IMG/VR virus record: IMGVR_UViG_3300025674_000014
Length of the DNA stretch: 64,000 bases
Reading direction: 5' to 3' (one strand)
From: a virus
Taxonomy: Duplodnaviria > Caudoviricetes
Below the pieces are notes generated by a model that was not told the origin of the DNA, ran no database searches, and saw nothing but the letters and a program-made list of their open reading frames with translations. Position 1 is the stretch's first letter. The number at the start of each line of letters is the position of its first letter. Shown in pieces: positions 3,004 to 60,767 of the stretch. Position numbers and translations under genes: made by a program.

Positions 3004-5607
3004 TTAGTTTTCTCTTCTATCTTCAGCTTTGTAATATTCAAACCTTTCATGATAGCAAGGAGTTGCTAATAGAATTGCAGGTTTAATATGTCCCTTAACT
3101 GTTTGCTGATAAATGTATGACATCCAAGTTTGTTCAAACGGTGCTGCCCATTTCTCTTCAAGGAACATCTTCTTATTACCTTCTTTTGAAACTAACTGAG
3201 GCCAGTTACAATAGAATACCTCTCCATCAATGTAAGGTAAACCGTCCATATTGTAAATATGATTGTATTTAACTAATGGAGCGTTAGGATCTAAACCGTT
3301 AGCCGGTAAATATTTCTTTTCTGGCCATACTTGCTCTCTCAGTTCTTGAGGTACATTATACCAAGACCATTGAGTACGATTATCTCCAAAGAATTCAGTA
3401 AAGCAGAATTTAAGCAAATCAAATCCATGCTTTTCCATAATCTTGTGAGTCTTATCAAACAAGTTAGGTATATATCTTCTAAAACCACTTTCACAATAAC
3501 CAACTTCTTTATCGTGAATATACATATCATCTTCAAGAAAGATATAATAATCACCGTCTGTCTTGTCAAAGTGTTCGGCTACCCACTGTCTACCTCCGCA
3601 AATACCGATATTATCTCGTTTATGCTCTGTAAAATTATAAAGATCAAAAATAGCTTCATAATCAGCATCAGTAGATCTATCAGTCGAATTATTCAATACA
3701 ACTTTTTCACATTTCTCAAACCATTTATCAGTAGTTGACCAATTTTCACAAAGTCTTAAGAATTGAGCAGGTGAATTATAAGTGATCACGTAAAGATATG
3801 TCTTAAGATCTTCAATAGGTCTAGTTTTTCTCGTCGTGATTAACTCAACGGTATCATTTTTTAGATGCTCAAAGAAACATTCAAACAGACCGTCATCTCT
3901 GATCATGGTTCTGTCTACTAAATCTTCATGTTTGTAAGTCAAAATAGTGAATACACTCTCTTCTGTACCCATTTGACCTTCATCTAATGAATTTTTTAAG
4001 TAATCGTAGTAAAGACTATTAACTTTTGGTATATAATCCTTATGACCACCAAATACACCTGCTCTTGCAACGCGGGTTGTCTTATCTACATTACAATATG
4101 TGCGTAATCTTTCATGATCAAAGCCATGAATTTCATAATTTTCGTACGGAAAACATACGAATAAAAATTTCTGCAAGTAATGATGAATTTTATTAATAAC
4201 TTTATCGTGAGTAAAGTACCCTTGATGAACTGTACTAGTAATACCACCATCAACCCATAAGAAATAATCGGTATTAAATGGATTTGAAATAGCAGCATCA
4301 TTGAGTAAAAACATCTTACTCATTACCATTGGATTATACAGTTCTAACCCAGCCTGAGTACTCTCTGCGAGCCAGGATGCTTTGTTATACCAGTCTGGGT
4401 TAGAACGAATCTCTTGTACTTTGTCGTAGAATTCAAACCAAGTTTTAAACTCCTCAGCTTCTTTAATAATAACACTAGTGTTATCCCTACTTCTACGCTC
4501 CCATACGAAATCTTCATGTGCTTTTCCGATAAAAATAATCATCGGAGCATCAGTTTTTAATAGTTCATCAAATTTATCTAGATAATGTTGGAATGGTCTA
4601 TTAAACCCTCCCTCCATTTCTCCACGTTTAAGGTCCCAAATACCAGTCACTATAGTCGTTTTAGAAGGTCCTTCGTTAGATATTGTTCTCTTTGGTTCTT
4701 CTTTGTCTTCTACTATAGTTCCATCTTGGAAATAATCACCTTCTTCAACGTTTTCAGGTACATCTATAAAGTTACCATCGGCATCGTTTCTAAAACCATT
4801 ACCTTCAACGCAAAGGCCAAGTTTTTCAACCTCAACCCAACGTCTATTTGTCTTAAATTTCTCAATCTCACTACTATGGAAAGCCATAATATCACAACCT
4901 TCCTGATTAGTAAGAATGTAACCTGCAGCAATTAACCTATCAAATAGTTTAACTAACTTATCTTCTTCATTATTGAATAACTCAAACTTAATTACTTTAG
5001 GTAAGTATTTTTCTAAAGTAAATCCTAAAAACACTTCATAATCAAAACCTTCTGTATCAACTGTACAGAAATCAATCTTTTCAATACCGTGTTTTTCTAA
5101 TAGTGAATCAGCAGTAACTACATCTACTTCAATAAGATCACCGTGTTCTTCAAGTAATGCTTTAGTTTCAGCATCTGTTTCAAAGCCATTTTTAGGTGGT
5201 ATAAAAGAACCCATACCTACAATAGCTTCATGTAAACCATCTGATTCAATCTTACTCCATGGAATGTAACACATTAGCTCTTTTCGTTCAGTATCTGAAA
5301 CAGCTACATTCTCCGTAATACAACCTTCTGGTAATTCAGTGGTTACATACTTTGTAAGTGCTTTAAATGCATCAGGTATTGGTTCAACGAACATACCTCT
5401 CCATTTATATGTTACCATATATGCAGAAATAGTATCATGAAAAGTACCATCACAAGAACCAATCGATAGATTGAACATAGGGTCGCCTTTTCGACCATAG
5501 TGATGCAAAATTATATCATAAATTCTCTCGACTTGCCAGGTGTTGAATTTTGTTGAAATTCTACCTTCATAGTCATCCCCTACTATATGATTGTGAATAT
5601 TACTCAT
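3004..5607 (-). CDS. Three-domain fusion: FkbM-like SAM methyltransferase + HtrL/YibB-like glycosyltransferase + GT-A/GT2-like domain
   Basis: N-term SIGSCDG..MFVEP..NVAVS..IDFCTVDTEGFDYEV (FkbM pattern); middle TTIVTGIWDL..YNPMVMSKMFLL..NPFNTDYFLWVDGG (HtrL/YibB pattern); C-term YVITYNSP..FLEDDM. Confidence 0.75.
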   Translation of the reverse strand: MSNIHNHIVGDDYEGRISTKFNTWQVERIYDIILHHYGRKGDPMFNLSIGSCDGTFHDTISAYMVTYKWRGMFVEPIPDAFKALTKYVTTELPEGCITENVAVSDTERKELMCYIPWSKIESDGLHEAIVGMGSFIPPKNGFETDAETKALLEEHGDLIEVDVVTADSLLEKHGIEKIDFCTVDTEGFDYEVFLGFTLEKYLPKVIKFELFNNEEDKLVKLFDRLIAAGYILTNQEGCDIMAFHSSEIEKFKTNRRWVEVEKLGLCVEGNGFRNDADGNFIDVPENVEEGDYFQDGTIVEDKEEPKRTISNEGPSKTTIVTGIWDLKRGEMEGGFNRPFQHYLDKFDELLKTDAPMIIFIGKAHEDFVWERRSRDNTSVIIKEAEEFKTWFEFYDKVQEIRSNPDWYNKASWLAESTQAGLELYNPMVMSKMFLLNDAAISNPFNTDYFLWVDGGITSTVHQGYFTHDKVINKIHHYLQKFLFVCFPYENYEIHGFDHERLRTYCNVDKTTRVARAGVFGGHKDYIPKVNSLYYDYLKNSLDEGQMGTEESVFTILTYKHEDLVDRTMIRDDGLFECFFEHLKNDTVELITTRKTRPIEDLKTYLYVITYNSPAQFLRLCENWSTTDKWFEKCEKVVLNNSTDRSTDADYEAIFDLYNFTEHKRDNIGICGGRQWVAEHFDKTDGDYYIFLEDDMYIHDKEVGYCESGFRRYIPNLFDKTHKIMEKHGFDLLKFCFTEFFGDNRTQWSWYNVPQELREQVWPEKKYLPANGLDPNAPLVKYNHIYNMDGLPYIDGEVFYCNWPQLVSKEGNKKMFLEEKWAAPFEQTWMSYIYQQTVKGHIKPAILLATPCYHERFEYYKAEDRREN

Positions 5608-6952: not shown

Positions 6953-6970
6953 AGCATCCTGTTATTATGT

Positions 6971-8497
6971 TTACTTTGGATCAACAATATCTTTAGTAAT
7001 CTTATCTAACCAACCATTATTATGGGTGTAAGGTATTACTGTATATGATGCAGGTGTTTCAGGGCATGTCAATGACATAGGAAATCTAGCTGCATATGGA
7101 TCTTGTCTCTCGTCGTAAATTTCTTGAATCTTACCAATGTCGTAATCTTCTCTCTTTAGCTCCTTACCTTCTGCATCATGCACACCTACATACCAAAACT
7201 CAGTATCTTCATAAGTCTCAGGTAACTCATCCCAAGGGACAAAGAAGTCTATACACCAGTTCTTACACCATTCTGTTTGATCATGAGGTGTAATATTTTC
7301 ATAACTAGGGTTTTTATAATCTCTACAATCAGGAGAAATAGCTCTTAGTTTAAAATTAATACCAGCGTACTCTTCATATTGTTCTACTGTTCTAACTTTA
7401 CCAAACCCATATTCATCCCCGAAGTTAATTTGATTAGGATCTTCACCATCCATACCAAACAGAATACGGTTACGCTTATGACATTGATCATTTACTTCAT
7501 ACCAGTCATATTCTCTACCGCTTGATCTATTATTATCATCCCAATGGTGAGGTCTACCTTTTCTTGTATATTCATGATATGCAATAATCTTATGAGGATG
7601 GAATAAATCATACCCGTGAGTAAAAGCTCTTACAGCAATACTAATCTCTTCACCGTGGAAGTAATAATTAGGGTCGTGAGTTACTTCTTTACACATCTTA
7701 CCAGATGCAAAAGCAAAGTGAGCTGAATAAAATCTACTTGGAATAGGTTCTCTTTGTTCGTCTCTTTCCATTGACGTGGGTAAAAAGAACATTGCACCTT
7801 CTGGAATGAATCTATCGATAATCATCTTCCAAGGATCTACTTCAAAACCATTAGCAAGCGTACGTTCACCTGTACCGTCTTTAAATTCTAACCAAGGTTT
7901 ATAGCTGGTTATGTAACCGGTAAATAGTGGTTTTTCGTGACCTTTATCTTGCATGTAATAATACATGCTTTTCATTTCTGAATCCCAGTGATCTACAAAT
8001 CTATGATGTGAATCAATTGCTAAAGTAAATTCATCTTCACACCATAAGTGTTGTAATGAATGTCTAGCCCAGCATGTACCGTGACCTCTTCTAGCATCTA
8101 CTTTAATTACTTGAAATCTATCATCATTTTGCATGAATTCGAACATGTCCTTATCATATTCATCATCTGGGTGCCATTGCCAGCAGATACCAAATCGTAA
8201 ATTTTCAGGGTTATCAGCCCTTTTAATCATATCTTTAATAGTTGGAATGAGTTCAGGGTCTCTATATGCAGCAATCTGAACAAAAATACGTTGATTACCT
8301 TTTCTATTTGGATCTACACTTTCATGGTAATATGTACCTACTTTATCCCAGGATTCATTTGTTTGTTGTTTACCTGGGGTGCTAATTTGTAATGAAGGGG
8401 TATCTTGTTGTGAATGTTGTACTTCTACAACTTTTTCACTACTAGTACTTTTTACAGACTTTAATCTATTTTTCCTAACAATCTTAATACCTGGCAT
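6971..8497 (-). CDS. Second GT60-family polypeptide GlcNAc-transferase-like paralog with ~70 aa N-terminal extension
   Basis: IFVQIAAYRDPEL, GHGTCWAR, IDSHHRF, SRFYSAHF, YFHGEEISIAVRAFTHGYDLFHP; C-terminal domain similar to the neighbouring paralog. Confidence 0.85.
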   Translation of the reverse strand: MPGIKIVRKNRLKSVKSTSSEKVVEVQHSQQDTPSLQISTPGKQQTNESWDKVGTYYHESVDPNRKGNQRIFVQIAAYRDPELIPTIKDMIKRADNPENLRFGICWQWHPDDEYDKDMFEFMQNDDRFQVIKVDARRGHGTCWARHSLQHLWCEDEFTLAIDSHHRFVDHWDSEMKSMYYYMQDKGHEKPLFTGYITSYKPWLEFKDGTGERTLANGFEVDPWKMIIDRFIPEGAMFFLPTSMERDEQREPIPSRFYSAHFAFASGKMCKEVTHDPNYYFHGEEISIAVRAFTHGYDLFHPHKIIAYHEYTRKGRPHHWDDNNRSSGREYDWYEVNDQCHKRNRILFGMDGEDPNQINFGDEYGFGKVRTVEQYEEYAGINFKLRAISPDCRDYKNPSYENITPHDQTEWCKNWCIDFFVPWDELPETYEDTEFWYVGVHDAEGKELKREDYDIGKIQEIYDERQDPYAARFPMSLTCPETPASYTVIPYTHNNGWLDKITKDIVDPK

Positions 8498-8531
8498 ATT
8501 TTATTTTATGCCAGGTATCGTTGATTTCAAC

Positions 8532-11500
8532 TTAGTTAATACATTTTACTTTATAATCAAACCATTCTTGATGTAAACGAACACAGTTAATGCAAGCTGA
8601 ATTATGAATACAAGCAGCATTATTAACATTAAGAAATGCAATTCCTACAAATTGTCTTGTTGAACCCCATAAATTTAAACAAGAATCATTAAAATCTAGC
8701 TGTTTACAAACGGTTACTACTTGATTAGTAAAAGTATTTGGCATGTTTGCGCCTATACTACACCATATTATTCCGTTACCAAAGCTAAATAAATAACATA
8801 CCGGGTAATTACTACTAGTGTTATTTCCATAAGATACATTTATTTTATAATATAAACAATCAATCATACTCATACAGTAATTAGAACTACAAACTGAACA
8901 TTTTACCATACATGCCTTATTTGCCATCATAGGAATGCAATTTGTACAACACATTGTATAATAGGCATACCACCCACCATCACTTCCCGGAAGACAAATA
9001 TTATGTACATATTGACCTCCGCATGTAAAACCACATGTGGTGTTTCTACAACAATAAGCTAATGAATAATTTTCACACCCTACATTTGCCAATATGTATT
9101 TACAACCGCAACCCCAACATAAACTAGTTGAATCATAACCGGCACAAAGATATTTGTCACACATATTATCTATATGATAATTACTCCACCAATTAGATTG
9201 CCATGCATAAATACATCTACCTGAATATCCGCAATCATAAAGATTAGCTAATGCACATAAATTACATGTACTACAAGCGGTATAAATAGCAGGCATCCAA
9301 GAATCATGTTGAGTATACCCAGACGGTTTTGGAGCACACCAACACCAATATAGAGGTGTACCTGAAGCTCGACAATTGTTTACGTAATAACTATAAGTAA
9401 AACAATTACTACTATCTGCCAACATATTTGTAGTTGCAAATGTCATAGCAGGGTTATATACTTCACAAGAATAACAAAATTTTATACATTGACCGGTAGT
9501 TAAAGTAGAATAATCTACAGAACATGTTATAGTGCTATATGAAGATACGTTAGAGTTAATAGTAGGGTAGTTATATGTAGCTTTAAATGTACCAGCGCTA
9601 CAAAAATAAGGGTCACACCCATATGTAATAAACCCGCCAAATGGAAAACATATTTTCCATGTCCATCCAAAAACACAAGAAGTGCTTATACATCTAACTT
9701 TATACCCGTAACCACTGGTTGGTGTACCCCAGGGTAATATATAGGTGTTAGAAGTATTACCATAATTGTCTGTTCTACTTGTCCACCAAGGGTGCGCTTT
9801 TGCTTGATTAAAGCATCTAAATCCTTGCGTACCTGTACATTTTGTTTCGGGCATTAAATTAGTACAAGCATAACTACCGCTGGTATAATTAGCACAGGTA
9901 TAGCTAGTTATTGTTGGACAAGTCGCGCCTGAACATATTAAATCAGTTACACTTGAACATTCATTAGGCACGGGAGGTGTGCTCGTAACTGTGGGTGTTC
10001 TTGTCTGTGTAGGTGTATGTGTACTTGTTCTGGTCGGCGTTCTCGTCTTGGATTCTGTAATAGACTTCGTTCTGGTTGGTGTTCTTGTCTTCGTTCTAGT
10101 ACGTGTAGGTGTATAGGTTGGTGTTCTTGTACGCGTAGGTGTTCTTGTTCTCGTGTTAGTAGGCGTTTGTGTACGCGTACGTGTGTAGGTTGGTGTTCTT
10201 GTACGTGTACGTGTACGTGTTTGGGTTGGTGTTCTCGTACGTGTACGTGAATGTGTAATAGATTTCGTTCTGGTTGGTGTTTGTGTACGTGTAGGTGTAC
10301 ATGTTCTCGTGCGTGTATAGGTTGGTGTTCTCGTACGTGTACGTGATTGTGTAATCGACTTCGTTCTGGTTGGTGTTCTCGTACGTGTAGGTGTTTGTGT
10401 ACGTGTACGTGTTTGGGTTGGTGTTCTCGTACGTGTACGTGATTGTGTAATCGACTTCGTTCTGGTTGGTGTTCTCGTACGTGTAGGCGTACATGTACGT
10501 GTTCTTGTTCTCGTACGTGTAGGCGACTGGGTTGGTGTTCTTGTACGTGTAGGTGTTTGTGTACGTGATCTTGTACGTGTACGTGTACGTGTAGCTGATT
10601 GAGTTGGTGTTCTTGTACGTGTAGGTGTTTGTGTACGTGTTTGGGTTGGTGTGCGCGTTCTAGTAGGTGTTTGTGTACGTGTCTTAGTTCTTGTTTGCGT
10701 TCTCGTACGTGTATAGGTTGGTGTTCTTGTTCTCGTACGTGTATATGTAGGAGTTTGTGTACGTGTATTTGTTGGTGTACGCGTACGTGATGCTGTACGT
10801 GTCGGTGTTTGTGAACGAGTAGGTGTTTGTGTACGTGTACGTGTTGCTGATCTGGTCGGTGTGCGTGTACGTGTACGTGTCTGTGTAGGTGTTTGTGTAC
10901 GTGTTTGTGTTCTCGTTCTACTTGGTGTAGGTGTTTGTGTTATTGATTTAGTACGTGTAACGGTTGGTGTTCTTGTACGTGTTACAGCTGGTGTTGCTGT
11001 TCTGGTAGGTGTTCTTGTACGCGTAGCTGTCTGAGATTTTGTTCTCGTTTGCGTAGCTGTACGTGTATTTGTTGGTGTTTGCGTACGTGTCGGTGTTTGT
11101 GTACGTGTCTTAGTTCTTGTTCTCGTACTCGTAGCTGTTCTCGTATTAGTAGCTGTCTGCGTATTAGATTTTGTTCTAGTAGCTGTTGGCGTTTGTGTAC
11201 GTGTCTTAGTAGCTGTTCTAGACTTAGTACGTGTTGGTGTTTGCGATCTCGTACGTGTATTGGTTGGTGTTTGCGTACGTGTAGCTGTTTGAGTGTTAGA
11301 TTTCGTTCTCGTCTGGGTTGGTGTTCTTGTACGCGTACGTGTAGATGTTTGTGTTGCTGTACGTGTTGATGTTGGTGTTTGTGTTCTGGATCTTGTACGT
11401 GTACGTGTCGGTGTATTTGATCTCGTACGCGTACGTGTAGCAGATTGTGTAGGTGTTTGTGTACGTGTCTTAGTTGACGTATTAGTAGCTGTCTGCGTTG

Positions 11501-14500: not shown

Positions 14501-14702
14501 CAAGTATTAAATTAGCATATAACTTATTGCCTACAGGTAATCCTGAACGCTCTTTTTGCACTAATAACCAATTGCTTGAATCCCCCACATAAGTAAACAT
14601 TACTTGAGTTTCATTTGATGTAAAAGAACTATCATCAAAATAAACCCATGAAATAATTGTAAAACTATCATTTAAAACAGGTAACGTATTTAAATTAGAA
14701 AC
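8532..14702 (-). CDS. Distal, frameshifted part of the giant TxT/LamG protein: rest of a LamG domain, ~1400 aa TxT tract, Cys-rich C-terminal domain
   Basis: The frame is open upstream of the ORF-track Met 14600 ([27 protein letters not shown]) and matches the internal paralog [27 protein letters not shown] near 32.2 kb. Confidence 0.85.
9978..14192 (-). repeat. Thr-x-Thr-x coding tract (~1400 aa), increasingly Arg-rich toward the C-terminus
   Basis: Thr at about every second residue; x is mostly Q/R/P/N/A/S; plus strand is almost pure G+T. Confidence 0.95.
10225..10487. repeat. 96-bp-period tandem repeat (32 aa unit containing TKSITQS)
   Basis: Exact 71-bp copies at 10321-10391 and 10417-10487; degenerate copy from 10225. 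Confidence 0.85.
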
Positions 14703-38755: not shown

Positions 38756-38764
38756 ACGTAAATA

Positions 38765-38770
38765 TATTTA
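38765..38770 (-). promoter_or_regulatory. T4-late-like TAAATA upstream of the giant gene
   Basis: 9 nt before ATG 38755; the same motif precedes about 15 genes in the window. Confidence 0.7.
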
Positions 38771-38801
38771 ATCACCTACGTATAAGGGAAATAAAAGAAT
38801 C

Positions 38802-39083
38802 TTAAGAAAAATTAATTTTTTCTGACTTAAGTTTAAACTTAAACTCTTTCTTGTATTTATTAGAAAAGTATGTAATTTCTTTACCTAGATATTCAACATA
38901 GTTTACATTTATAACAGCTAGAGGCTCGTCTTTATAATAGACATATGTAGTGGATAAACACAACTCTCCTTCAAGAGGTATTGCCGGTAAGATAACATAA
39001 TCATCTTTACCTGCTTGAAATGAAACTGCATTATCTTGAGCATGTGGCTCACCACCTGTTCCTATTAATTTAAATGTATCCAT
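38802..39083 (-). CDS. 93 aa stand-alone paralog of the C-terminal domain of the upstream 880 aa TxT protein
   Basis: LIGTGGEPHAQDNAVSFQAGKDD aligns with LTGTGSAPHPAANGVTFQSAAND; both contain INFS/VNFS at the C-terminal end; TAATG stop/start overlap. Confidence 0.8.
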   Translation of the reverse strand: MDTFKLIGTGGEPHAQDNAVSFQAGKDDYVILPAIPLEGELCLSTTYVYYKDEPLAVINVNYVEYLGKEITYFSNKYKKEFKFKLKSEKINFS

Positions 39084-41725
39084 TATGTAGAAAAGTTAAC
39101 GTTACCATCAACAAAGTTACCTAAGAAAGGTCCATCTCCGTTAGCATACTCAACTCTGAATTGGTCTCCTGTATATCCATTGTAAGAGTAACTCACAACT
39201 GATCTAATACTACCATCAACGTAGATATACATAGTAGCAAAAGCTGGGCCACCGGATAAATCAGTATCAAACTCAAATATGTCATTTGCAGCAGATTGGA
39301 ATGTAACACCGTTAGCTGCAGGGTGAGGTGCTGATCCGGTACCTGTTAAACTGTTATTAAAGGTAAGAGGAGGTGTTGATGTTTGAGTTGGTGTGTAAGT
39401 AGGTGTTCTAGATTGGGTAGGTGTTTGGGTAGATGTTCTTGTATTAGTCGGTGTAGCTGTAGGGGTTTGTGTCCTTGTTCTTGTTTGTGTAGGTGTTTGA
39501 GATCTAGTAGAGGTTTGTGTCGGACTTTGAGTAGCGGTTTGCGATCTAGTTTGGGTAGGTGTTCCTGTCTGTGAAGATGTTCTTGTTTGGGTTGGTGTTT
39601 GAGATTTTGTTCTTGTATTAGTAGGTGTTTGTGTTCTAGATTGTGTTGGTGTTTGTGTCGGTGATTGAGTAGGTGTATTTGTATTTGTTTGTGTTGGTGT
39701 TTGTGTTAAAGTTTGTGTTGGTGTACGAGTTTGTGTTGATGTTCTAGTAGTAGTTGGTGTTCTTGTTCTAGTTGCACCTGGTGTATCAGTTTGACTTGGT
39801 GTTCTTGTGAAAGTTGCTGTTCTTGTGTTAGTTGGTGTGGTAGTTGATGTATTAGTAGGTGTTTGAGTTGCGGTAGAAGATTGAGTAGCTGTACGGGTAA
39901 CAGTTGGTGACGATGTTCTAGTAGATGTTTGTGTGTTTGTTCTAGAAGAAGTTACTGTAGGTGTAGCTGTTGAAGTCTTTGATTTTGTTCTAGTTACAGT
40001 GGGTGTTACAGTATTAGTAGCTGTTTTAGTTTGTGTGGGGGTTTGAGATCTAGTAGGTGTTTGTGTTCTTGTAGATGTTCGTGTTGGTGTTTGAGTTGAT
40101 GTTTGAGTAGGGGTTTCTGTTCTTGTTTGAGTAGCTGTTCTAGTATTAGTTGGTGTATTGGTAGCTGTACGAGTAGGAGAAGCTGTAGCTTCTGGTGTTA
40201 AAGTTGATGTAGATGTTACCGTTCTAGTATTAGTAGCGGTTTGAGAAGCTGTTCTAGTGGCTGTTTTTGTATTAGTAGGTGTATTTGTCGGTGTTCTACT
40301 ATTAGTGGGTGTTCTAGTTCTCGTAACGTCAGGTGTATCGGTTTGCGAAGGCGTTCTAGTGAAAGTAGCTGTTCTTGTATTAGTTGGTGTGGATGAATTT
40401 GTAGCTGTTCTAGTAGTAGTTTGTGTTGGAGATTGAGTTGCAGTTTGTGTAGCGGTTCGAGAAGATGTTCTCGTGTTAGTTGGGGTTACTCCAGGTGTAC
40501 CTGTTCTGGTGGATGTTTGTGTAGGGGTTTGTGTAGAAGTCTGAGTTCTTGACCTTGTTTGTGTAGGAGATTGGGTAGGTGTTTGAGTTCTTGTAGTTGT
40601 AGCAGAACGAGTAGGTGTAACTGTATTAGTTGGTGTAGATGTTCTTGTAGAAGTCCTTGTAGCAGAAGCTGTTTGAGTTGGTGTAATAGTTGACGTTCTA
40701 GTTTGGGTAACACCGGGTGTTGCTGATCTAGTTGACGTTCTCGTTTGTGTTGGTGTGATTGTTGATGTAGCGGTATTAGTAGCGGTTGTTGTAGCTGAAC
40801 TAGTTGCTGTTTTAGTATTTGTTATAGTGGCTGTTACGGTTGGTGTAGATGTTGACGTTCTAGTAGCCGTAGCAGTTTGAGTTGGTGTTTGTGTGGGTGT
40901 AGTTTGAGGTGTACCAGTTGAAGTAACTGTCTGCGTAGGTGTTTGAGAAGATGTCTTAGTGTTAGTAGCAGTAGATGTTTTTGTTCTGGTAGTTGTTTGT
41001 GTCGGGGTTTGAGTAGCAGTAGCTGCTGGTGTAGCTTGAGGTGTATTTGATGATGTTGCAGTAGGGGTAACTGTTGCAGTTCTTGTAGGTGTTTGAGTAG
41101 CGGTTTGTGTTCTAGATCTTGTAGCTGTTTGAGTAGCTGTTTGTGTTCTCGTTCTAGTAGATGTTTGCGTGGGGGATACTTGAGGAGATGCAGTAGGTGT
41201 AGCAGTAGATGTAGAAGTTGTTGTTCTAGTTGGTGTTGCAGTATTACTTGCTGTTCTAGTTGGTGTTTGTGTTGAAGTTACTGCAGGGGACGCTGTTGGT
41301 GTGGCAGTAGATGTAGAAGTTGATGTTCTAGTTGGTGTTTGAGTTGTAGATTGAGTACTTGTTCTAGTTACCGTCTGGGTAGATGTACGGGTATTAGTTG
41401 GTGTTGGTGTTGGTGCAGATCCTTGAGTAGGTGAAACTGAAACAGTCTTTGTAGGGGTTTGTGTTCTTGTTCTAGTATAAGTCGGGGTAGCTGTTCTTGT
41501 AGCTGTTGGTGTTACTACTGGATTTGGTTCATTATCAACCGAAACCATACCAACATGCATACCTAACGGTTGCAAGCCAGATCTTCTAGAAGATCTGTTA
41601 GCTTGCGGTCGGGGATCCAATATACAGGAGGGAATAGCTCGCCTACTATTTAAAGGATTATTAGGACAAATATTGGCTATATTATTTTGGTTACCACTTC
41701 CAAATTGATTTGATCTACTCGCCAC
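39083..41725 (-). CDS. TxT stalk protein (880 aa, GTG start) with a ~95 aa beta-rich tip domain
   Basis: Short N-term, TxT tract about 39372-41520, globular C-term; TAAATA 5 nt upstream. Confidence 0.85.
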   Translation of the reverse strand: MASRSNQFGSGNQNNIANICPNNPLNSRRAIPSCILDPRPQANRSSRRSGLQPLGMHVGMVSVDNEPNPVVTPTATRTATPTYTRTRTQTPTKTVSVSPTQGSAPTPTPTNTRTSTQTVTRTSTQSTTQTPTRTSTSTSTATPTASPAVTSTQTPTRTASNTATPTRTTTSTSTATPTASPQVSPTQTSTRTRTQTATQTATRSRTQTATQTPTRTATVTPTATSSNTPQATPAATATQTPTQTTTRTKTSTATNTKTSSQTPTQTVTSTGTPQTTPTQTPTQTATATRTSTSTPTVTATITNTKTATSSATTTATNTATSTITPTQTRTSTRSATPGVTQTRTSTITPTQTASATRTSTRTSTPTNTVTPTRSATTTRTQTPTQSPTQTRSRTQTSTQTPTQTSTRTGTPGVTPTNTRTSSRTATQTATQSPTQTTTRTATNSSTPTNTRTATFTRTPSQTDTPDVTRTRTPTNSRTPTNTPTNTKTATRTASQTATNTRTVTSTSTLTPEATASPTRTATNTPTNTRTATQTRTETPTQTSTQTPTRTSTRTQTPTRSQTPTQTKTATNTVTPTVTRTKSKTSTATPTVTSSRTNTQTSTRTSSPTVTRTATQSSTATQTPTNTSTTTPTNTRTATFTRTPSQTDTPGATRTRTPTTTRTSTQTRTPTQTLTQTPTQTNTNTPTQSPTQTPTQSRTQTPTNTRTKSQTPTQTRTSSQTGTPTQTRSQTATQSPTQTSTRSQTPTQTRTRTQTPTATPTNTRTSTQTPTQSRTPTYTPTQTSTPPLTFNNSLTGTGSAPHPAANGVTFQSAANDIFEFDTDLSGGPAFATMYIYVDGSIRSVVSYSYNGYTGDQFRVEYANGDGPFLGNFVDGNVNFST

Positions 41726-41749
41726 AATTATATTTATTAAATTATTGGC

Positions 41750-42664
41750 TTATAGTTTGAGAGAAGTAATGATTTTATCAACATTAAAGATCTCTCTTTC
41801 ATCAGTATAAGGACATTCATGAGCGTGAGCAGCTAAATCATAATCAAAATAATAACTGTTCATCAAATGAGATTTGCCTTTAGGATCATTAGCCTTAATA
41901 TTGTGATGAAGTTTATAACCGAACATCTCAGGGTGAGTACCAATCCAAAGTACGGTAGAAGGTAAACCAAAAGCTGCTGCAGCATGCTGCATGCATGAGT
42001 CAATTAGAAGTCTTTTATCCGCTGCTTTTAGAATAGAAAACAATTCAATATTACTCATTTGTGCATTTACTACTTCACAACCTTGAACATGAGGAGAGTT
42101 AGGTCTGCAAACCTGGTAAACGTGATAACCTTTATTGAGAGCAGCATTAGCTACCTCCGAAGCAACACTATAAGGCATATCGCGAGTCCAAGCATATATA
42201 TGTTGCTGTTGGTCTTCACCGAACGGACCACCGTTGGTTTGCAGAACTAAAATTGGTCTTTGATCTTGATTAAGCCATCTTTGATGAGCCTGTTGACCAT
42301 ACATGTTAAGAGGAATGTTAGGTCTATGTTTAAGTTCATTAAACTCTAACCCACACATTGTAAACCACGTCTGCATAAGAGGTGTCTTCTGCATAATGTG
42401 AGTAGATTCATAATAAGGCTCTCTTCTAAGAACAATAGTATCTTTATTGTTAATAAATGTTTCGTAAAAATAAGGTGTACCGTGAGGGTAAACTCGTTCA
42501 ATATCTGGGTTATGAAAGAAAATCTCTGGCCAGGAAGCAGTTACAATTATTTTTCTATCAGGATATTTTTCCTTAAGAGGTTTTATAATAGCAGTAGAAG
42601 CAACGTTCTTACCTAAACCACCTTCTACATGTAATACAACATATTTTTCTTTTGACTCGCTCAT
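41750..42664 (-). CDS. GT9-like (heptosyltransferase-fold, GT-B) glycosyltransferase
   Basis: EGGLGKNVAST..YPDRKIIV and LLIDSCMQHAAAAFGLPSTVLWIGTHP motifs. Confidence 0.75.
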   Translation of the reverse strand: MSESKEKYVVLHVEGGLGKNVASTAIIKPLKEKYPDRKIIVTASWPEIFFHNPDIERVYPHGTPYFYETFINNKDTIVLRREPYYESTHIMQKTPLMQTWFTMCGLEFNELKHRPNIPLNMYGQQAHQRWLNQDQRPILVLQTNGGPFGEDQQQHIYAWTRDMPYSVASEVANAALNKGYHVYQVCRPNSPHVQGCEVVNAQMSNIELFSILKAADKRLLIDSCMQHAAAAFGLPSTVLWIGTHPEMFGYKLHHNIKANDPKGKSHLMNSYYFDYDLAAHAHECPYTDEREIFNVDKIITSLKL

Positions 42665-42693
42665 TAATTTAATTTAGCGAGTATCTATATAAA

Positions 42694-45135
42694 TCAAGTT
42701 ATATCACTCCAAACATTTACTCTTTGAATAGTACCATCAGCACCTAATTGATTATCTATAACGTCTTGAACTTCATCAAGAAATTCTGTCTGAGTGTAAT
42801 TAGGACCATTAGGATAACCGCCGCCGCCATATAATAATGAAGCAAGTAAAATATCATTATTATAAAGTAAGAATATAGGACTACCACTATCACCAGACGA
42901 TACACCGTTAGGAAAAAATAACGTTCTTGCAGGTAATAAAGAACTAGCTGTACTTAAATTTTGATATTTATTTATATAAAATTGATAAGCCCCGGGGCAA
43001 GTAGTTCTACACGCCCAAGGATAAATTTTTTCATTTAAAGCTATAGCATATGCATTATCTAAACAAACAGTTCCAGGAGCCGGGGTAAAGGATCTACCAC
43101 CACCTACAATTACTGGAAACGAACAAGCTGGTACGATTTCCGAACCATTTAAATTTTTGAATTCAGCAAATTTATATATTTTTATATCTGGATCGGTAAT
43201 AGGGTTTGATAATTTACCTACAGCAACATCAGTATAATAATTACCTAATACTGAACTTTGGTTAAAATAACAACCTTGTAATCCACTACTGTTACAAGCC
43301 CAGCATGCTACTTGAGCAGATACTCTATCCCCATTAGGTTTAATAAAATTAATACAATAACCAGTAGTTAATCCCTGATATTGAGAATCAGATTGTATAT
43401 TATTATGAGGTGTATTATGAGCAGCTACTATAAAGTGTCTATCAGTAATCATTACATAATTACTAAATTCTGTATGTAATGCGCAAGAACCACTATCATA
43501 AAAATACGGATTACCACAACATGTTACATTAGAAAACCCTTGACCAGTTAAACATGAATAGCACGCTGCGTACCTAACACCTGATACATCAACTATATTT
43601 CTACAACTATACCACCAAGCACTGGTATTTACATTACCGCCGCTGCAATTAATATAATTGTAAGTAAATGAATTTGCAGCAGTTATTGAAGTAATACTGT
43701 TAACACCTAATCTACAAAATTCATAATTAGTGCAATTTAAAAAGTTTCTAAAACATTGACAATAATAACACGCTGTTGGTGTTCTTGTTTGAGTCGGTGT
43801 TTGTGTTCTTGTTCTAGTATAAGTTGGTGTCCTGGTTTGAGTACGTGTTCTTGTAGGGGTTGGTGTACATGTTGATGTTGCTCCGCTTGTGCAAGTTTGA
43901 GTATTTGTTCTAGTTTGTGTAGGTGTTTGTGTTGATGTTCTAGTATATGTAGGTGTATTGGTTGGTGTTCTGGTATTTGTACAAGTTGGGGTAGGGGTAC
44001 CGTATTTAGATACCGTTGATGTTTGCGTGGCTGTTCTTGTAGCTGTTCTTGTTTGAGTAGGTGTTCTAGTTGGTGTACCTGTTTGAGAAGCTGTTCTTGT
44101 ATTGGTGGGTGTTGGTGTAGGTGTATCTGCAGAAGTACATGTGATTGTTGGTGATACCGATCTCGTTCTTGTTTGAGTTGGTGATAAAGTAATTGATTTG
44201 GTTATAGTAGGGGTTTGTGTAGGGGAACTACCGCAAGTAACAGAAGGTGTTAATGTTCTTGTTCTAGTATTAGTTGCAGTACGGGTTCTAGTTGGTGAAC
44301 TTGTTCTACTATTAGTAGGTGTTTGGGTTGAGGTAGGGGTGGGGGTAGCGTAACTTGAAACCGTGCGTGTCGGGGTCAATGTACGAGATTGAGTTAAAGT
44401 TCGTGTTGGTGTTGATATATTTGTACCCGAACACGTTTGGGTTGGTGTATTAGATCTTGTTTTAGTATTTGTGGCGGTTTGTGAGCTTGTTTTAGTTTGG
44501 GTTGATGTTTTGGTATTAGTTAAAGTCGATGTTGATGTTCTAGTGCAAGTTACATTTGGTGTATCCGTTCTTGTAGCTGTTTGAGTAGGGGTTTGTGTTC
44601 TTGTTTGAGTTGGTGTTCTTGATCTTGTATATGTTGTTGTTGGTGTTCTACTATTAGTTGGTGTTGATGTAGGTGTAGATGTTGAAGTTCTGGTATCTGT
44701 AGGTGTATAAGTATGTGTTCTCGTACAAGTAGGTGTTTGAGTAGGTGTTCTAGAACAGGTTACATTAGGATTAGTTACTAAAGGATCAGTAGCGGTAGGG
44801 GTAGATGTTTTTGTTCTCGATTTAGTATTTGTAGGTGTAGCTGTAACAGCTAAACAACTCGAACCAAAAGCTGTTGGTGTTCTTGTTCTAGTACCTGTAA
44901 AAGTAGCAGTATTTGATCTAGTTACTGTTTGAGATGGAGTGGTGGTTGGGCATGATGTAACTGTTTGTGTTGGTGTGTTAGATCTTGTAGGGGTTAAAGT
45001 CGCGGTTTGCGTAGGTGTCCTAGTTTGAGTTACATACGGGTCGGCCCCTTGACGCATTTTACCCCAGTTGCTCGCTTGAGCTGGACCTGGGTTTGCGCTT
45101 CTAATTAAATCTCTTACTGTTGGTAAAGTAGCCAC
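42694..45135 (-). CDS. TxT stalk protein (813 aa, GTG start) with Cys-rich segment and C-terminal trypsin-like serine protease domain
   Basis: Catalytic-triad motifs in order: HFIVAAH, TDVAVGKL, SGDSGSPIF. Confidence 0.8.
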   Translation of the reverse strand: MATLPTVRDLIRSANPGPAQASNWGKMRQGADPYVTQTRTPTQTATLTPTRSNTPTQTVTSCPTTTPSQTVTRSNTATFTGTRTRTPTAFGSSCLAVTATPTNTKSRTKTSTPTATDPLVTNPNVTCSRTPTQTPTCTRTHTYTPTDTRTSTSTPTSTPTNSRTPTTTYTRSRTPTQTRTQTPTQTATRTDTPNVTCTRTSTSTLTNTKTSTQTKTSSQTATNTKTRSNTPTQTCSGTNISTPTRTLTQSRTLTPTRTVSSYATPTPTSTQTPTNSRTSSPTRTRTATNTRTRTLTPSVTCGSSPTQTPTITKSITLSPTQTRTRSVSPTITCTSADTPTPTPTNTRTASQTGTPTRTPTQTRTATRTATQTSTVSKYGTPTPTCTNTRTPTNTPTYTRTSTQTPTQTRTNTQTCTSGATSTCTPTPTRTRTQTRTPTYTRTRTQTPTQTRTPTACYYCQCFRNFLNCTNYEFCRLGVNSITSITAANSFTYNYINCSGGNVNTSAWWYSCRNIVDVSGVRYAACYSCLTGQGFSNVTCCGNPYFYDSGSCALHTEFSNYVMITDRHFIVAAHNTPHNNIQSDSQYQGLTTGYCINFIKPNGDRVSAQVACWACNSSGLQGCYFNQSSVLGNYYTDVAVGKLSNPITDPDIKIYKFAEFKNLNGSEIVPACSFPVIVGGGRSFTPAPGTVCLDNAYAIALNEKIYPWACRTTCPGAYQFYINKYQNLSTASSLLPARTLFFPNGVSSGDSGSPIFLLYNNDILLASLLYGGGGYPNGPNYTQTEFLDEVQDVIDNQLGADGTIQRVNVWSDIT

Positions 45136-45174
45136 AATCTAATATATTTAATCTACTATAATATATTTAAAGAT

Positions 45175-48100
45175 TTAAAGTGTACCGTACCCCACCCCAA
45201 CATATAAATCATTATTTCTGTTAACGCAATATGAAAAATTAGAATAAACTTCAACGCGTTGAGCACTACCTACGTAAGGAGTTATACATAACCATAAAGC
45301 ATTACTACCATAAGGGGACTGACCATATGCATAACAAGCAGCTGCTTGCATTATATTACAATAAGTAACATCATAATTCCAATAACCACCGGCAGCCAAA
45401 GAACAACTAACTAAGGAACAATAACAATAATTATAATTGCAATCATTGGCTCTAGCATAAAGAGTAACGGTTAATGTGGACCCGCTTATATTAGTAATTG
45501 TACCACATGCCCTTGCAGCCTTAACAGCAAAATAGTTACTCATCCACCCGGTAGGGTTAGCATCTTGTGCATAATCACAACACCACATTCTATTTTGCAG
45601 TGGTTTATTATACATCACCACACCTCCAGAACAACCGAAACACTCACGTGTACAATGTGTTACAGATGGAAATGCATTGTAAGTAGCATTATTACTTTCC
45701 ATAATTACTAAACTATCATAACAACCATCTGCATCGCTACAACTTTGCGAATATACATGTTGAGGTAATACACCAGTATATACCCAAGTATAACCACTAG
45801 CAATAGGTGAACCTATATCAGGACAGTCACAACGTTCACATGTACCATTAGAAGTATTAAAAAATGCACATGGTCTATTAGGACTTAACCACCCGTCTGT
45901 GCATCCTGTGTATAAAGACGGTACTTTAAACTCCGTTTCAACAATGTAAGGTGAAGTAGGGTTTGCTCCCCAATCTTTTAAACAACCTAAACTTGCATTA
46001 ATATAACAATTGCAATACCCTGCAATACACGAGGTCGCTACACATTGAGTACAACTACTAGCAGGTGCACAACTAATACCATAGTTAGTATGTAAACAAT
46101 AAGCAGGAGCACATACAGTATAACATACATAACCGTCTGCTTGAGTATTACACATAGATATATATCTCACACATTGAAAACATGTACCGTAACTCATTTT
46201 CTGTTTATAGGTATTTCTATAACATTTGCCTGAATTAGTAGCATTAGCCATTAAACGTGAAGGGGGTGTAATTGTAAGAAGAGAAACTATAGAACCGGGT
46301 ATATAACACCCCTCAAAACAAGTACCAGGTTTAGGCTTAGTACATGCAGTGAAAGGAAATCTAAAGGATGTACCCGGACACATAACCGCGGCACTTTCAA
46401 AATCTTGCAAACAAAATCTATAACATACAAAATATGAACCGCTATAAGAAGCACAATAATTAGTACTAGGAAAAGTATTACACAATAAATCAAAATTAGC
46501 ACAAGGCCCGTAAGTACATTCATAACAAGTATTAATATTATAACATTGTACCGGAGGTGTAGCAGTTTGAGTTGGTGTATATGTTCTTGTTTGTGAAGGG
46601 GTGTAAGTTCTTGTTTGAGTACACGTTCTTGTTTGGGTGGGTGTATAAGATCTGGTATTGGTTGGTGTTTGTGTACGTGTACGTGTACTTGTTCTAGTAG
46701 GTGTACATGTTCTTGTTTGAGTTGGTGTATATGTTCTTGTTCTAGTTGGTGTTTCTGTTCGGGTTCGGGTTCGGGTAGGGGTGCATGTTCTTGTTCTTGT
46801 TTGAGTGGGGGTTCTAGATCTAGTTCTAGTTGGTGTTTCTGTTCTTGTCCTGGTTCGAGTAGGAGATTGAGTTCTTGTATAAGTAGGTGTTCTTGTTCTT
46901 GTTCTAGTTGGTGTTCTAGACCTAGTACTGGTAGACGTTCTAGTTTGTGTAGGGGTTCTTGATCTAGTTTTTGTTGGTGAAACTGATCTTGTATGAGTAG
47001 ATGTTCTTGTTTGAGTGGGTGTTTGGGTTCTAGTTTTAGTTTGAGTTCTTGATCTTGTATTAGTTGGGGTTCTTGTTCGTGTAGGGGTTTGCGATCTAGT
47101 AGGTGTTTGAGTTCTTGTTCTTGTTTGTGTGGGTGTTTGAGTTCTTGTTTTTGTAGGGGTTTGTGAACGAGTTCTGGTTGGAGATTGAGTTCTGGTTGGT
47201 GTTTGTGTGCGGGTACGCGTTTGCGATCTTGTAGGTGTTTGAGTTCTTGTTCTTGTTTTGGTGGGTGTGTAGGTTCTAGATTTAGTTCTTGTTTGAGTGG
47301 GAGTTTGGGTACGTGTACGGGTTTGTGTTCTAGATCTTGTACTTGTAGGTGTTCTAGTTTGTGTAGATGTTCTTGTATTAGTAGGTGTTCTTTCTCTTGT
47401 AGGGGTTTGAGATCTTGTTCTAGTTTGTGTAGACGTTCTTGTTCTAGTAGGTGATTGAGACCGGGTAGGTGTTTGTGTTCTTGTTCTAGTTCGTGTTGGT
47501 GATTGAGTTCGTGTTGGTGATTGAGAACGTGTTGGTGATTGAGAACGTGTTGGTGTTTGTGTTCTTGTTCTTGTACTAGTGGGTGTTCTAGTTTGTGTAG
47601 ATGTTCTTGTATTAGTCGGTGTTGTTGTTCTAGTTCTTGTTTTCGTGCTTGTTGGTGTTTGTGTGCGGGTGCGAGTTTGTGACGGTGTTTGTGTTCTTGT
47701 ATTAGATGATGTCTGAGTTATTGTTTGAGTTGACGTTCTAGTTTGAGTAACACCTGGTGTATCTGTTTGAGAAGGGGTGCGTGTAAATGTAGGTGTTTGA
47801 GTTCTGGTTCTTGTTTGAGTTGGAGTTTGAGTTGATGTTCTAGTAGAGGTGTTAGTTGGGGTTTGTGTTGCTGTTTTGGTAACAGTAGATGATTGGGTTG
47901 ATGTTCTTGTTTTTGTATTGGTTGGTGTTTGAGTACGTGTTCTAGATTGAGTGGGTGTACGAGTTTGTGTAGGTGTATGAGTTTGTGTAGCTGTTTTAGT
48001 AACAGTGGATGATTGGGTTGATGTTCTTGTACTAGTAGGTGTAGGTGTTTGTGTACTTGTTCTGGTTTGAGTTGCTGTTCTTGTTTGTGTGGGTGTTCTT

Positions 48101-49437
48101 GTTTGTGTGGGTGTTCTAGTAGATGTATCAGTAGGGGTATACGTTGGTGTTTGGGTACGTGTTCTTGTTTGTGTAGATGTTCTTGTTTGTGTAGATGTTC
48201 TAGTTTGTGTAGATGTTCTTGTTGATGTTTGAGATGATGTTCTGGTTTGGGTGGGTGTTCTAGTACTAGTATTAGTTGATGTTCTAGTTGGGGTAGGATA
48301 GGCAGATACAGTACTAGTGGGGGTTCTAGTTTGGGTTGACGTTCTAGTTGGTGTTTCGGTGGGTGTACTAGTTGGTGTTTGAGTTGCTGTTCTTGTATTG
48401 GTAGCGGTTCTTGTATTGGTAGCGGTTCTAGTGCTTGTAGGTGTTTGGGTTTGAGTATTAGTTCGTGTTTGTGTAGATGTTCTTGTGTTTGTTTGGGTAC
48501 TAGTTCTCGATTGAGTACTAGTTTGGGTTGACGTTCTTGTTTGTGTAGAACTTCTAGTTGAAGTATAGGTAGGGGTGTATGTTGGTGTGTTAGTTGTTGT
48601 TTGAGTTACTGTTGGTGTTGGAGTTGAAGATGATGTTCTTGTACTTGTTTGGGTAACCGTTGATGTAGCTGTTCTAGTATATGTTGGTGTACAAGTTCTA
48701 GTACGCGAAGGGGTTTGAGTAGGTGTTCTACTAGATGTTGCGGTTCTAGTGGGGGTTTGAGTAGCAGTCTGTGTATTAGTTCTAGTTTGAGTAGATGTTT
48801 GAGTAGAAGTTCTAGTTACTGTCTGAGAAGGTGTTTGTGTATTTGTCGCTGTTTGTGAAGGTGTTCTTGTACTAGTTCTTGTTCTTGTTTGTGTTGGGGT
48901 TGGGGTTGATGAACTAGTTGGGGTACGAGTTCTAGTTGCATCAGGGGTGTCTGTTTGAGTTGCTGTTCTTGTAACTGTTTGAGTACTTGTTCTTGTTACA
49001 GTGCTAGTAGACGTTTGAGTTGGTGTTCTTGTATTTGTAGGTGTTTGGGTTTGTGTGGGGGTAGGAGTACCATATACAGGTGAAGGTGAAACTGAACTAG
49101 TACGTGTTTGTGTTCTAGTAAATGTATTGGTTTTTGTAGGAGTTGAATAAGGTGAAACTGTAGATGTAGGCGATAAAGTAATCGATTTAGTAGAAGTAGG
49201 AGAGTAAGTTACTGTCGACGAAGGTGTTATATCTTTAGTACGGGTATTCGTTCTTGTTTGTGTAGCTGTTTTTGTTTGAGTTGGTGTATTAGATCTGGTT
49301 TGTGTAGAAGATCTAGTAGGGGTAGGGGTTTGAGTTCTACTTCTAGTAACCGTGGGTGTAGGTGTTCTTGTGGCGTTTGGAGTTTCGCCGTATTTGAATA
49401 GACCTTGATTTAGCTTGACAATTTTAGGATTGGCCAC
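45175..49437 (-). CDS. TxT stalk protein (1420 aa, GTG start) with ~460 aa Cys-rich C-terminal domain of unrecognised fold
   Basis: TxT tract about 46555-49376; Cys-dense C-term; TAAATA upstream. Confidence 0.85.
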   Translation of the reverse strand: MANPKIVKLNQGLFKYGETPNATRTPTPTVTRSRTQTPTPTRSSTQTRSNTPTQTKTATQTRTNTRTKDITPSSTVTYSPTSTKSITLSPTSTVSPYSTPTKTNTFTRTQTRTSSVSPSPVYGTPTPTQTQTPTNTRTPTQTSTSTVTRTSTQTVTRTATQTDTPDATRTRTPTSSSTPTPTQTRTRTSTRTPSQTATNTQTPSQTVTRTSTQTSTQTRTNTQTATQTPTRTATSSRTPTQTPSRTRTCTPTYTRTATSTVTQTSTRTSSSTPTPTVTQTTTNTPTYTPTYTSTRSSTQTRTSTQTSTQSRTSTQTNTRTSTQTRTNTQTQTPTSTRTATNTRTATNTRTATQTPTSTPTETPTRTSTQTRTPTSTVSAYPTPTRTSTNTSTRTPTQTRTSSQTSTRTSTQTRTSTQTRTSTQTRTRTQTPTYTPTDTSTRTPTQTRTPTQTRTATQTRTSTQTPTPTSTRTSTQSSTVTKTATQTHTPTQTRTPTQSRTRTQTPTNTKTRTSTQSSTVTKTATQTPTNTSTRTSTQTPTQTRTRTQTPTFTRTPSQTDTPGVTQTRTSTQTITQTSSNTRTQTPSQTRTRTQTPTSTKTRTRTTTPTNTRTSTQTRTPTSTRTRTQTPTRSQSPTRSQSPTRTQSPTRTRTRTQTPTRSQSPTRTRTSTQTRTRSQTPTRERTPTNTRTSTQTRTPTSTRSRTQTRTRTQTPTQTRTKSRTYTPTKTRTRTQTPTRSQTRTRTQTPTRTQSPTRTRSQTPTKTRTQTPTQTRTRTQTPTRSQTPTRTRTPTNTRSRTQTKTRTQTPTQTRTSTHTRSVSPTKTRSRTPTQTRTSTSTRSRTPTRTRTRTPTYTRTQSPTRTRTRTETPTRTRSRTPTQTRTRTCTPTRTRTRTETPTRTRTYTPTQTRTCTPTRTSTRTRTQTPTNTRSYTPTQTRTCTQTRTYTPSQTRTYTPTQTATPPVQCYNINTCYECTYGPCANFDLLCNTFPSTNYCASYSGSYFVCYRFCLQDFESAAVMCPGTSFRFPFTACTKPKPGTCFEGCYIPGSIVSLLTITPPSRLMANATNSGKCYRNTYKQKMSYGTCFQCVRYISMCNTQADGYVCYTVCAPAYCLHTNYGISCAPASSCTQCVATSCIAGYCNCYINASLGCLKDWGANPTSPYIVETEFKVPSLYTGCTDGWLSPNRPCAFFNTSNGTCERCDCPDIGSPIASGYTWVYTGVLPQHVYSQSCSDADGCYDSLVIMESNNATYNAFPSVTHCTRECFGCSGGVVMYNKPLQNRMWCCDYAQDANPTGWMSNYFAVKAARACGTITNISGSTLTVTLYARANDCNYNYCYCSLVSCSLAAGGYWNYDVTYCNIMQAAACYAYGQSPYGSNALWLCITPYVGSAQRVEVYSNFSYCVNRNNDLYVGVGYGTL

Positions 49438-60682: not shown

Positions 60683-60691
60683 AAAATAAAA

Positions 60692-60767
60692 TGGTAGGGT
60701 GACAGGGACTTGAACCCTGGACAAATGACTTAAAAGGCCACTGCTCTACCAACTGAGCTACCACCCC
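60692..60767 (-). tRNA. tRNA-Lys(UUU)
   Basis: GGGGTGG acceptor, D-arm GCTC/GAGC, anticodon loop CT-TTT-AA, TTCAAGT T-loop, encoded CCA; 76 nt. Confidence 0.95.

Follow-up and report, generated by a model that had tools for sequence, protein, structure and literature searches.

We analysed a 64,000-nucleotide stretch of the IMG/VR virus record IMGVR_UViG_3300025674_000014 (Duplodnaviria; Caudoviricetes), hereafter the window, which derives from an uncultured jumbo phage of freshwater, a relative of the XacN1/RaK2-like group. Between positions 3,004 and 49,437 it carries a block of genes in which two soluble glycosyltransferases of family GT60 follow a series of giant open reading frames (ORFs) rich in alternating Thr-x arrays. 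Our reading, to which we assign a probability of roughly 0.6, is that the locus is a cytoplasmic protein O-glycosylation module serving the phage's own giant modular Thr-x proteins. We computed here to which family the enzymes belong and how they fold, what the arrays consist of and how far they extend, and how the genes are linked in phages and in bacteria; we infer the donor sugar, the use of Thr as acceptor, a division of labour between the GT60 paralogues, and the location of the array proteins in the virion together with their physical role. An earlier note on this DNA had proposed that the phage O-glycosylates its own fibres, an idea that enzyme family, fold, solubility and gene linkage support in part, while the transfer of sugar and the identity of the array proteins as fibres are still presumed, as are the roles suggested there, among them protease resistance, masking and bait.

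The core of the locus consists of GT60b (450 residues; 5600-6952, on the minus strand like every other feature placed by coordinates below) and its paralogue GT60a (508 residues; 6971-8497), which is 47% identical to it and additionally possesses a polar N-terminal extension of 60 residues. As the earlier note had recognised from the DSH and FHGEE motifs of the two same-strand genes, both are of the GT60 type: a Pfam profile search matched GT60a and GT60b to PF11397 with E-values of 3.7e-65 and 1.9e-69 (221 and 235 bits, respectively, against a gathering cut-off of 21). GT60 is a family of protist polypeptide alpha-N-acetylglucosamine (GlcNAc)-transferases that initiate mucin-type glycans, and also includes the Skp1 enzyme Gnt1 (PMC8724618, PMC6939170). 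Both window proteins contain DSH and YYFHGEEIS, and an alignment of 36-38 homologues shows no variation at D95-S96-H97, at H226 (GT60b numbering) or in the FHGEE block; H226 is a putative metal ligand. In a tree of GT60 sequences the paralogues fall in separate, well supported clades, both of which are common to the related loci L007-L009, and no membrane segment was detected by hydropathy in either protein.

A sequence search against solved structures gave no match for GT60b. Its AlphaFold model has a GT-A fold (predicted local distance difference test score, pLDDT, 91.6), and the best match to this model among reviewed proteins is Dictyostelium Gnt1 (Q8T1C6; E 4.4e-23, 24% identity), followed exclusively by polypeptide N-acetylgalactosamine (GalNAc)-transferases (ppGalNAc-Ts). 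In the comparison with the PDB, rows 1-41 are all ppGalNAc-Ts (T2, T4, T12 and others; E about 1e-10), enzymes of GT27. We regard GT60a and GT60b as bona fide soluble members of PF11397/GT60, whose modelled fold is closest to Gnt1 and the ppGalNAc-Ts. When GT60b was modelled together with Mn and an array segment of 50 residues, in a prediction run without controls, the score was 0.00, which speaks neither for nor against the proposal.

The model further shows that residues 340-435 (approximately) of GT60b form a separate C-terminal beta-sandwich of the FN3/Ig-like type (pLDDT 90; FN3-like matches with Z up to 7.9). This extra domain is present in both paralogues and in nearly all aligned homologues, with F367, R382, D384, P411, P418 and W425 (GT60b numbering) invariant in a 33-sequence alignment. 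We considered a ricin-like lectin identity for it and rejected this, the domain being a generic FN3/Ig-like sandwich (Z at most 7.9). Upstream, the stop codon of the last array ORF (8532) and the ATG of GT60a (8497) are separated by 34 nucleotides on the same strand, as had been counted previously, and a perfect 13-bp RNA hairpin (8486-8519; -22.2 kcal/mol, z -5.9) falls in this gap with the GT60a AUG in its 3' arm; none of 200 shuffled sequences folded equally well. The hairpin may throttle translation of the enzyme relative to that of the structural gene, or may be a site of RNA processing.

The presumed substrates are encoded by five ORFs whose arrays add up to 6,623 residues, with 2,999 Thr, 2,779 T-x-T triplets and an isoelectric point (pI) of about 12. 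Thr makes up 45% of the arrays, Arg 11.6%, Gln 10.6%, Pro 8.7% and Ser 8.5%, while Asp and Glu together contribute less than 1%. Throughout, Thr, or less often Ser, occupies alternate positions, and the x of T-x-T is Arg in 23%, Gln in 21% and Pro in 17% of cases, with Ala, Ser and Asn also found. The arrays lie far above chance, and since the repeats are degenerate in the DNA (60-85% match), their periods being multiples of 6, it is at the protein level that the dipeptide register is conserved. None of the array ORFs contains a 19-residue window at membrane-helix hydropathy (maximum 1.37) or a signal-peptide-like N-terminus, the latter in line with what the earlier note had stated. Two motifs break the Thr-x register: one containing ...TPSQTDTP..., found eight times in four genes, and one containing ...VSRYPTPT..., found in different genes (three exact and five loose occurrences). 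These might serve as docking, cleavage or register-reset sites.

In addition to the arrays, these ORFs carry folded modules, and Cys-rich domains terminate three of them. The first to be transcribed (1420 residues; 45175-49437) has a 946-residue array and a Cys-rich C-terminal domain. The next (813 residues; 42694-45135) combines arrays and a Cys-rich region with a C-terminal part that looks like a trypsin-type protease on motifs only: AAH, DVAV and GDSGSP occur in the order of the trypsin-type catalytic triad, and this part gave no Pfam match even at an E-value of 5. The third (880 residues; 39083-41725) is 83% Thr-x array with a small folded C-terminus. The largest ORF (8021 residues; 14690-38755) holds nine arrays (3,139 residues) and, according to a Pfam search of its non-repeat segments, at least 17 ConA-like/LamG stretches, two Gly_rich_2 domains and Cys-rich modules. 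The last (2022 residues; 8532-14600) is composed of the C-terminal half of a LamG domain, matching positions 49-150 only of Laminin_G_3, followed by a 1,411-residue array and a 480-residue Cys-rich domain.

The 8021- and 2022-residue ORFs are joined by a frame change within one LamG domain (14690-14717), which we located by three-frame translation. The larger ORF stops inside the domain, and the -1 frame runs uninterrupted into the smaller one, matching an internal paralogous LamG residue for residue; the two ORFs are thus very probably one gene of about 10,070 codons, broken by a single-base frame change. Relative to that paralogue one base is missing, unless a -1 slip occurs. The change may stem from an error in sequencing a homopolymer, from a genuine break or from a programmed -1 shift; an intact joined product would rank among the largest phage proteins. 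The earlier count of one giant and four upstream TxT genes therefore holds as to the presence of the arrays and needs correction as to number: there are five array ORFs in all, and the 2022-residue one is very probably the C-terminus of the giant. The LamG, Gly-rich and Cys-rich modules, and these only, suggest that the array proteins are virion fibres.

Immediately downstream of the GT60 genes, and overlapping the stop of GT60b by 8 nucleotides, lies a gene for a three-module enzyme (3004-5607). It comprises an FkbM-type methyltransferase (residues 49-225; PF05050, E 5.7e-17; TIGR01444), a WlaTC/HtrL-type glycosyltransferase (residues 316-565; PF09612, E 2.4e-11; TIGR02192) and a C-terminal module (residues 585-867, approximately) that is GT2/GT25-like and whose Atlas features match viral GT2/HtrL/GT25 clusters. 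The HtrL and C-terminal GT2-like parts accompany GT60 in almost all phage loci. A further, weakly assigned enzyme is encoded between the array genes (304 residues; 41750-42664): it resembles GT9 heptosyltransferases (PF01075, E 0.12; TIGR02201, E 0.0065), and its Atlas matches are viral clusters that in part contain PF01075.

Genomic association of GT60 with TxT genes had been set beforehand as a test that could refute the proposal, and an association was found in phages and, independently, in bacteria. Starting from the enzymes, 40 IMG/VR loci encode relatives of GT60b, many of which have a Thr-x ORF terminating a short way upstream on the same strand; many relatives with such an ORF directly upstream of GT60 are at about 50% identity. 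Starting from the arrays, a scan of IMG/VR that was blind to GT60 (fourteen consecutive ACN-NNN units) returned 80 loci. GT60 is encoded in 9 of 24 records chosen only by their large heterogeneous Thr-x arrays, most of them estimated to be less than 40% complete, as against 4 of 50,697 phage isolates; of 24 records whose repeats are small or simple, three encode it, all of them with TPT-type arrays, and of eight records without a Thr-x ORF none does. Several of the GT60 genes in the array-selected records have an array ORF as their upstream neighbour. GT60 phages that have no adjacent array gene carry arrays elsewhere, as seen in Xanthomonas phage XacN1 (122 matches to the array pattern, in ORF174, ORF180 and ORF384, versus 0 for a reversed control pattern) and in the 288-kb record G049 (2,062 matches). 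In metagenomes, at least 7,985 GT60 homologues were scored.

Several findings weigh against the proposed module. Linkage is not obligatory, since in the close relative L008 the GT60 genes are preceded by a YadA-like fibre gene and by other enzymes instead of an array gene; RAS14 encodes GT60 and almost no arrays, and the near-complete phage genomes G006 and G022 have modest arrays and no GT60. The phage matches belong mostly to one broad lineage, so that the phage association alone could reflect shared descent, and the adjacent arrangement is labile and only weakly clustered on the GT60 tree. The arrays are also extremely basic, unlike classical mucin domains; the N-termini of the array proteins have no homologues in isolates, which leaves their location in the virion as presumptive; and a literature search found no biochemistry for any prokaryotic or phage GT60/PF11397 protein. 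As to the L008 locus itself, this 76%-identical relative (L008:3-8400) has, judged by eye from translations, a YadA-like gene with NTTG repeats and an S74-type chaperone end in the place of the array gene, together with two further glycosyltransferase-like genes, one methyltransferase-like gene and one sulfotransferase-like gene.

The bacterial genomes supply a comparison outside this lineage. We examined 80 bacterial GT60 loci from Bacteroidota, Gemmatimonadota, Verrucomicrobiota, Planctomycetota, Acidobacteriota and other phyla, whose flanks contain 22 [TS]-x array ORFs. For fourteen of these the distance to the GT60 homologue is 530 bp or less, as against an expectation of 2.1 (none of 200,000 simulations reached 14; binomial p about 7.5e-10), and an HtrL-plus-GT2-like gene abuts GT60 in 36 of the 80 loci. 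Some contigs of metagenome-assembled genomes (MAGs) may be phage DNA; megabase contigs and isolate genomes show the same arrangement. One MAG contig labelled Gemmatimonadota (L179) encodes proteins 83-90% identical to GT60b and the three-module enzyme of the window and is probably a piece of phage DNA that ended up in the bin of a bacterium. At three loci (L185, L258 and L201) the array neighbours of GT60 have twin-arginine-like N-termini (SRREAVK..., SRRGFV...), which would fit glycosylation in the cytoplasm followed by export through the twin-arginine translocation (Tat) system.

The alternative that survives best is that the GT60 and HtrL enzymes modify other phage proteins, such as the capsid, the sheath or folded fibre modules, and that the arrays are unmodified flexible or extended linkers which lie close by because of shared late timing. 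The GT60 pair of L008, adjoining a fibre without arrays, and RAS14 would both be accommodated by this explanation, as would the PT-type linkers that are common in phage proteins without GT60 and the observation that the glycoproteins of mycobacteriophages are capsid and tail tube proteins (Freeman 2023, as cited in PMC12619734). It nevertheless fails to account for bacterial [TS]-x ORFs adjoining GT60 about seven times above expectation, or for the enrichment of GT60 in records selected by their arrays, and we consider it unlikely.

Less probable still is that the acceptor is not a protein, namely that the sugar goes to phage DNA bases, host envelope glycans, lipid-linked precursors or a small molecule. 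The partner enzyme offers an argument for this, as HtrL/YibB is named after an Escherichia coli gene without established function, which sits in the lipopolysaccharide core locus. Many phage glycosyltransferases, moreover, modify DNA or the host O-antigen (reviewed in PMC12619734). On the other hand, the characterised GT60 members and their structural neighbours in GT27 all act on polypeptides (PMC8724618, PMC6939170), the enzymes of the window have no membrane segment, and the bacterial neighbour statistics would be left unexplained. DNA of XacN1 gives restriction digestion patterns with several enzymes (PMC5852040 supplement), which argues against bulky DNA glycosylation in that phage. Finally, transfer of GlcNAc to hydroxyproline in TPT motifs, after a host or unrecognised prolyl hydroxylase, is suggested by Gnt1, the Skp1 hydroxyproline GlcNAc-transferase, being the single best structural match and by the Pro content of the arrays, and is very improbable, given that Thr is five times as frequent as Pro and is the array feature conserved across phages and bacteria, and that oxygenases of the prolyl 4-hydroxylase type are absent both from the scanned ORFs of the window and, as far as PF13640, the sole family searched, from five large related genomes (XacN1, the complete G001, G049, G051 and G052; control genomes matched). 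The lack of a prolyl hydroxylase thus favours Thr/Ser over hydroxyproline, and the earlier note's own caveat, that the enzymes might act only on hydroxyproline, loses ground.

XacN1 brings the components together in a cultured phage. It encodes a GT60 protein (ORF334) that is 47% identical, an HtrL-type partner (ORF330) and the three array proteins listed above. Its virions contain at least two Schiff-stained glycoproteins, the bands of which were never identified (PMC5852040, Suppl. Fig. S4); the authors named ORF328 and ORF334 as a possible cause of the staining and did not connect it with Thr-x arrays or GT60 chemistry (PMC5852040). The giant tail-fibre-like ORF325, which lies near GT60, was considered as a substrate and set aside, as it is not rich in Thr-x and the arrays of XacN1 sit in other genes. 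Directly 3' of the GT60 gene is ORF333 (L001:16412-18709), annotated as a carbamoyltransferase and hinting at a carbamoylated glycan, and in RAS14 an unannotated ORF of equal size occupies the corresponding position (L002:16512-18812). Mycobacteriophage virion proteins are O-glycosylated by phage-encoded glycosyltransferases (Freeman 2023, as cited in PMC12619734). Together with the Schiff-positive proteins of XacN1 and the suggested role of its ORF334, this makes the former statement that no comparable phage system was known an overstatement: phage virion glycosylation and GT60 chemistry are each already known, separately.

In the proposed mechanism, the soluble GT60 pair would act late in infection, adding alpha-linked N-acetylhexosamine (HexNAc) from the uridine diphosphate (UDP)-HexNAc of the host, most likely UDP-GlcNAc, to the Thr and Ser hydroxyls of the arrays. 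The three-module enzyme would then extend and methylate the glycan, and the GT9-, GT11- and GT2-like enzymes of the window may also extend or fucosylate it. The product would be stiff, extended and protease-resistant bottle-brush spacers, hundreds of nanometres long, which would keep the lectin-like, Gly-rich, Cys-rich and protease-like modules at a distance from the particle. A wider generalisation is possible, and we put it forward tentatively: GT60 and the WlaTC/HtrL-GT2 extender may constitute a widespread prokaryotic and phage pathway that hyper-O-glycosylates [Thr/Ser]-x arrays in the cytoplasm, on jumbo-phage fibres as well as on Tat-exported bacterial surface proteins, and may be a counterpart, possibly even the evolutionary source, of eukaryotic GT60/GT27 mucin-type initiation. 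In the phage studied here, as many as about 3,000 Thr of a protein some 10,000 residues long might be decorated by it, giving micrometre-scale, glycan-coated filaments.

As for the surroundings, all large genes within 1-49,437 are on the minus strand, in the transcription order 1420-, 813-, 304-, 880-, 8021- and 2022-residue ORFs, GT60a, GT60b, the three-module enzyme and a 992-residue ORF (1-2976) that runs past the end of the window. The last of these matches no Pfam family, is always found 3' of the enzyme genes in the closest relatives and is syntenic in L005-L009 (50-99% identity). Neither this ORF nor the N-terminus of the giant protein has homologues among phage isolates, so that a role in the virion receives no support from homology. 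The last 15 kb of the window encode a lysozyme with LysM, an Mtd_N-like protein and two more glycosyltransferases. One (56545-57309) resembles the GT11 family of alpha-1,2-fucosyltransferases (PF01531, E 1.9e-7; phrog_2644, E 6e-12) and is a possible glycan-capping enzyme, tied to the locus by proximity only; the other (59891-60724) belongs with phage GT2-like families (phrog_2456, E 3.5e-25; phrog_1579, E 2.9e-21). The T4-type late promoter TATAAATA is not enriched in the window (4 matches versus 10 expected).

Two IMG/VR contigs are 99% identical to the window, and the enzyme region recurs in aquatic and freshwater metagenomes from at least 12 studies; among phage isolates no near-identical DNA was found. 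Metatranscriptome contigs of 95-99% identity span the enzyme genes in four runs, where carry-over of DNA is possible, so that they are no proof of expression.

GT60 is so far known only from mucin-type and Skp1 glycosylation in protists; if the locus does glycosylate its own Thr-x proteins, the family would gain its first function in a prokaryote or virus. Virion glycosylation, described for a few mycobacteriophages, would then also take in a very abundant lineage of aquatic jumbo phages, and the purpose of the enormous Thr-x arrays that surface proteins of phages and bacteria carry would be explained. There would be consequences for how phages adsorb, how stable their particles are and how grazers or immune systems recognise them. 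Soluble enzymes for the dense O-glycosylation of designed peptides in E. coli would also become available. XacN1, with all components, a public virion proteome data set (PXD008065) and a laboratory-tractable, plant-associated bacterium as host, offers a cultured model.

Among cellular systems, the protist GT60 enzymes and Gnt1 share PF11397, a DxH-type motif and the GT-A fold with the window enzymes, and the protist members (Dictyostelium pp-alphaGlcNAcT/modB and Trypanosoma cruzi OGNT) initiate O-glycans on dense Thr/Ser arrays (PMC8724618). The window enzymes resemble Gnt1 in being soluble and predicted to be cytoplasmic. In its own pathway Gnt1 precedes a two-domain extender enzyme, much as GT60 in the window precedes an enzyme with two glycosyltransferase domains. 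Identity to Gnt1 is nevertheless only 24%; the window proteins have an added FN3/Ig-like C-terminal domain, a bacterial host and a viral carrier, they lack the Golgi anchor that mucin-type enzymes of protists possess, and no prolyl hydroxylase of the kind that accompanies Gnt1 was found.

The animal ppGalNAc-Ts of GT27 are the nearest solved structures (12-16% identity), and the likeness includes a GT-A catalytic domain followed by an accessory C-terminal domain, acceptors rich in Thr, Ser and Pro, and several paralogues per genome. However, their accessory domain is a ricin-type beta-trefoil lectin and they work in the Golgi lumen, whereas the window enzymes have a beta-sandwich and a predicted cytoplasmic location, and the arrays are strictly alternating and strongly basic. 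Of the hallmarks of secretory mucin-type glycosylation, the dense Thr/Ser/Pro arrays are present, and a membrane-anchored type II initiator and a ricin-type lectin are absent, so that the resemblance is one of chemistry and not of pathway. The expression 'mucin-type' used in the earlier note is to be taken as an analogy in this sense, the pathway here differing in that the enzymes are cytoplasmic.

Closer in organization are the serine-rich-repeat adhesins of Gram-positive bacteria (Fap1, GspB, PsrP), whose Ser-x arrays are O-GlcNAcylated in the cytoplasm by the adjacently encoded GtfA/GtfB; the mechanism proposed here thus exists in bacteria. In both systems the arrays are very long, place a hydroxy amino acid in alternate positions and are broken by folded binding regions; in the adhesins several further glycosyltransferases extend the O-GlcNAc, and the product is a fibrillar surface adhesin of thousands of residues. 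The differences are that the adhesins employ a GT-B (GT4) initiator pair, Ser rather than Thr, and accessory Sec export instead of phage assembly and lysis. Among the Pfam-scanned ORFs of the window there is no GT4-type (Glycos_transf_1) GtfA/GtfB pair, and no sequence homology to that system was detected in the window. With respect to other phages, the mycobacteriophages and XacN1 likewise have phage-encoded glycosyltransferases that decorate, or may decorate, their own structural proteins inside the host; the mycobacteriophage glycans, unlike those envisaged on the arrays of the window, are located on short C-terminal tails of the capsid and tail tube proteins. The closest working analogy to the module proposed here is to be seen in the GtfA/GtfB-modified Ser-x repeat adhesins, and the closest homologues of its enzymes in the GT60 proteins of protists.

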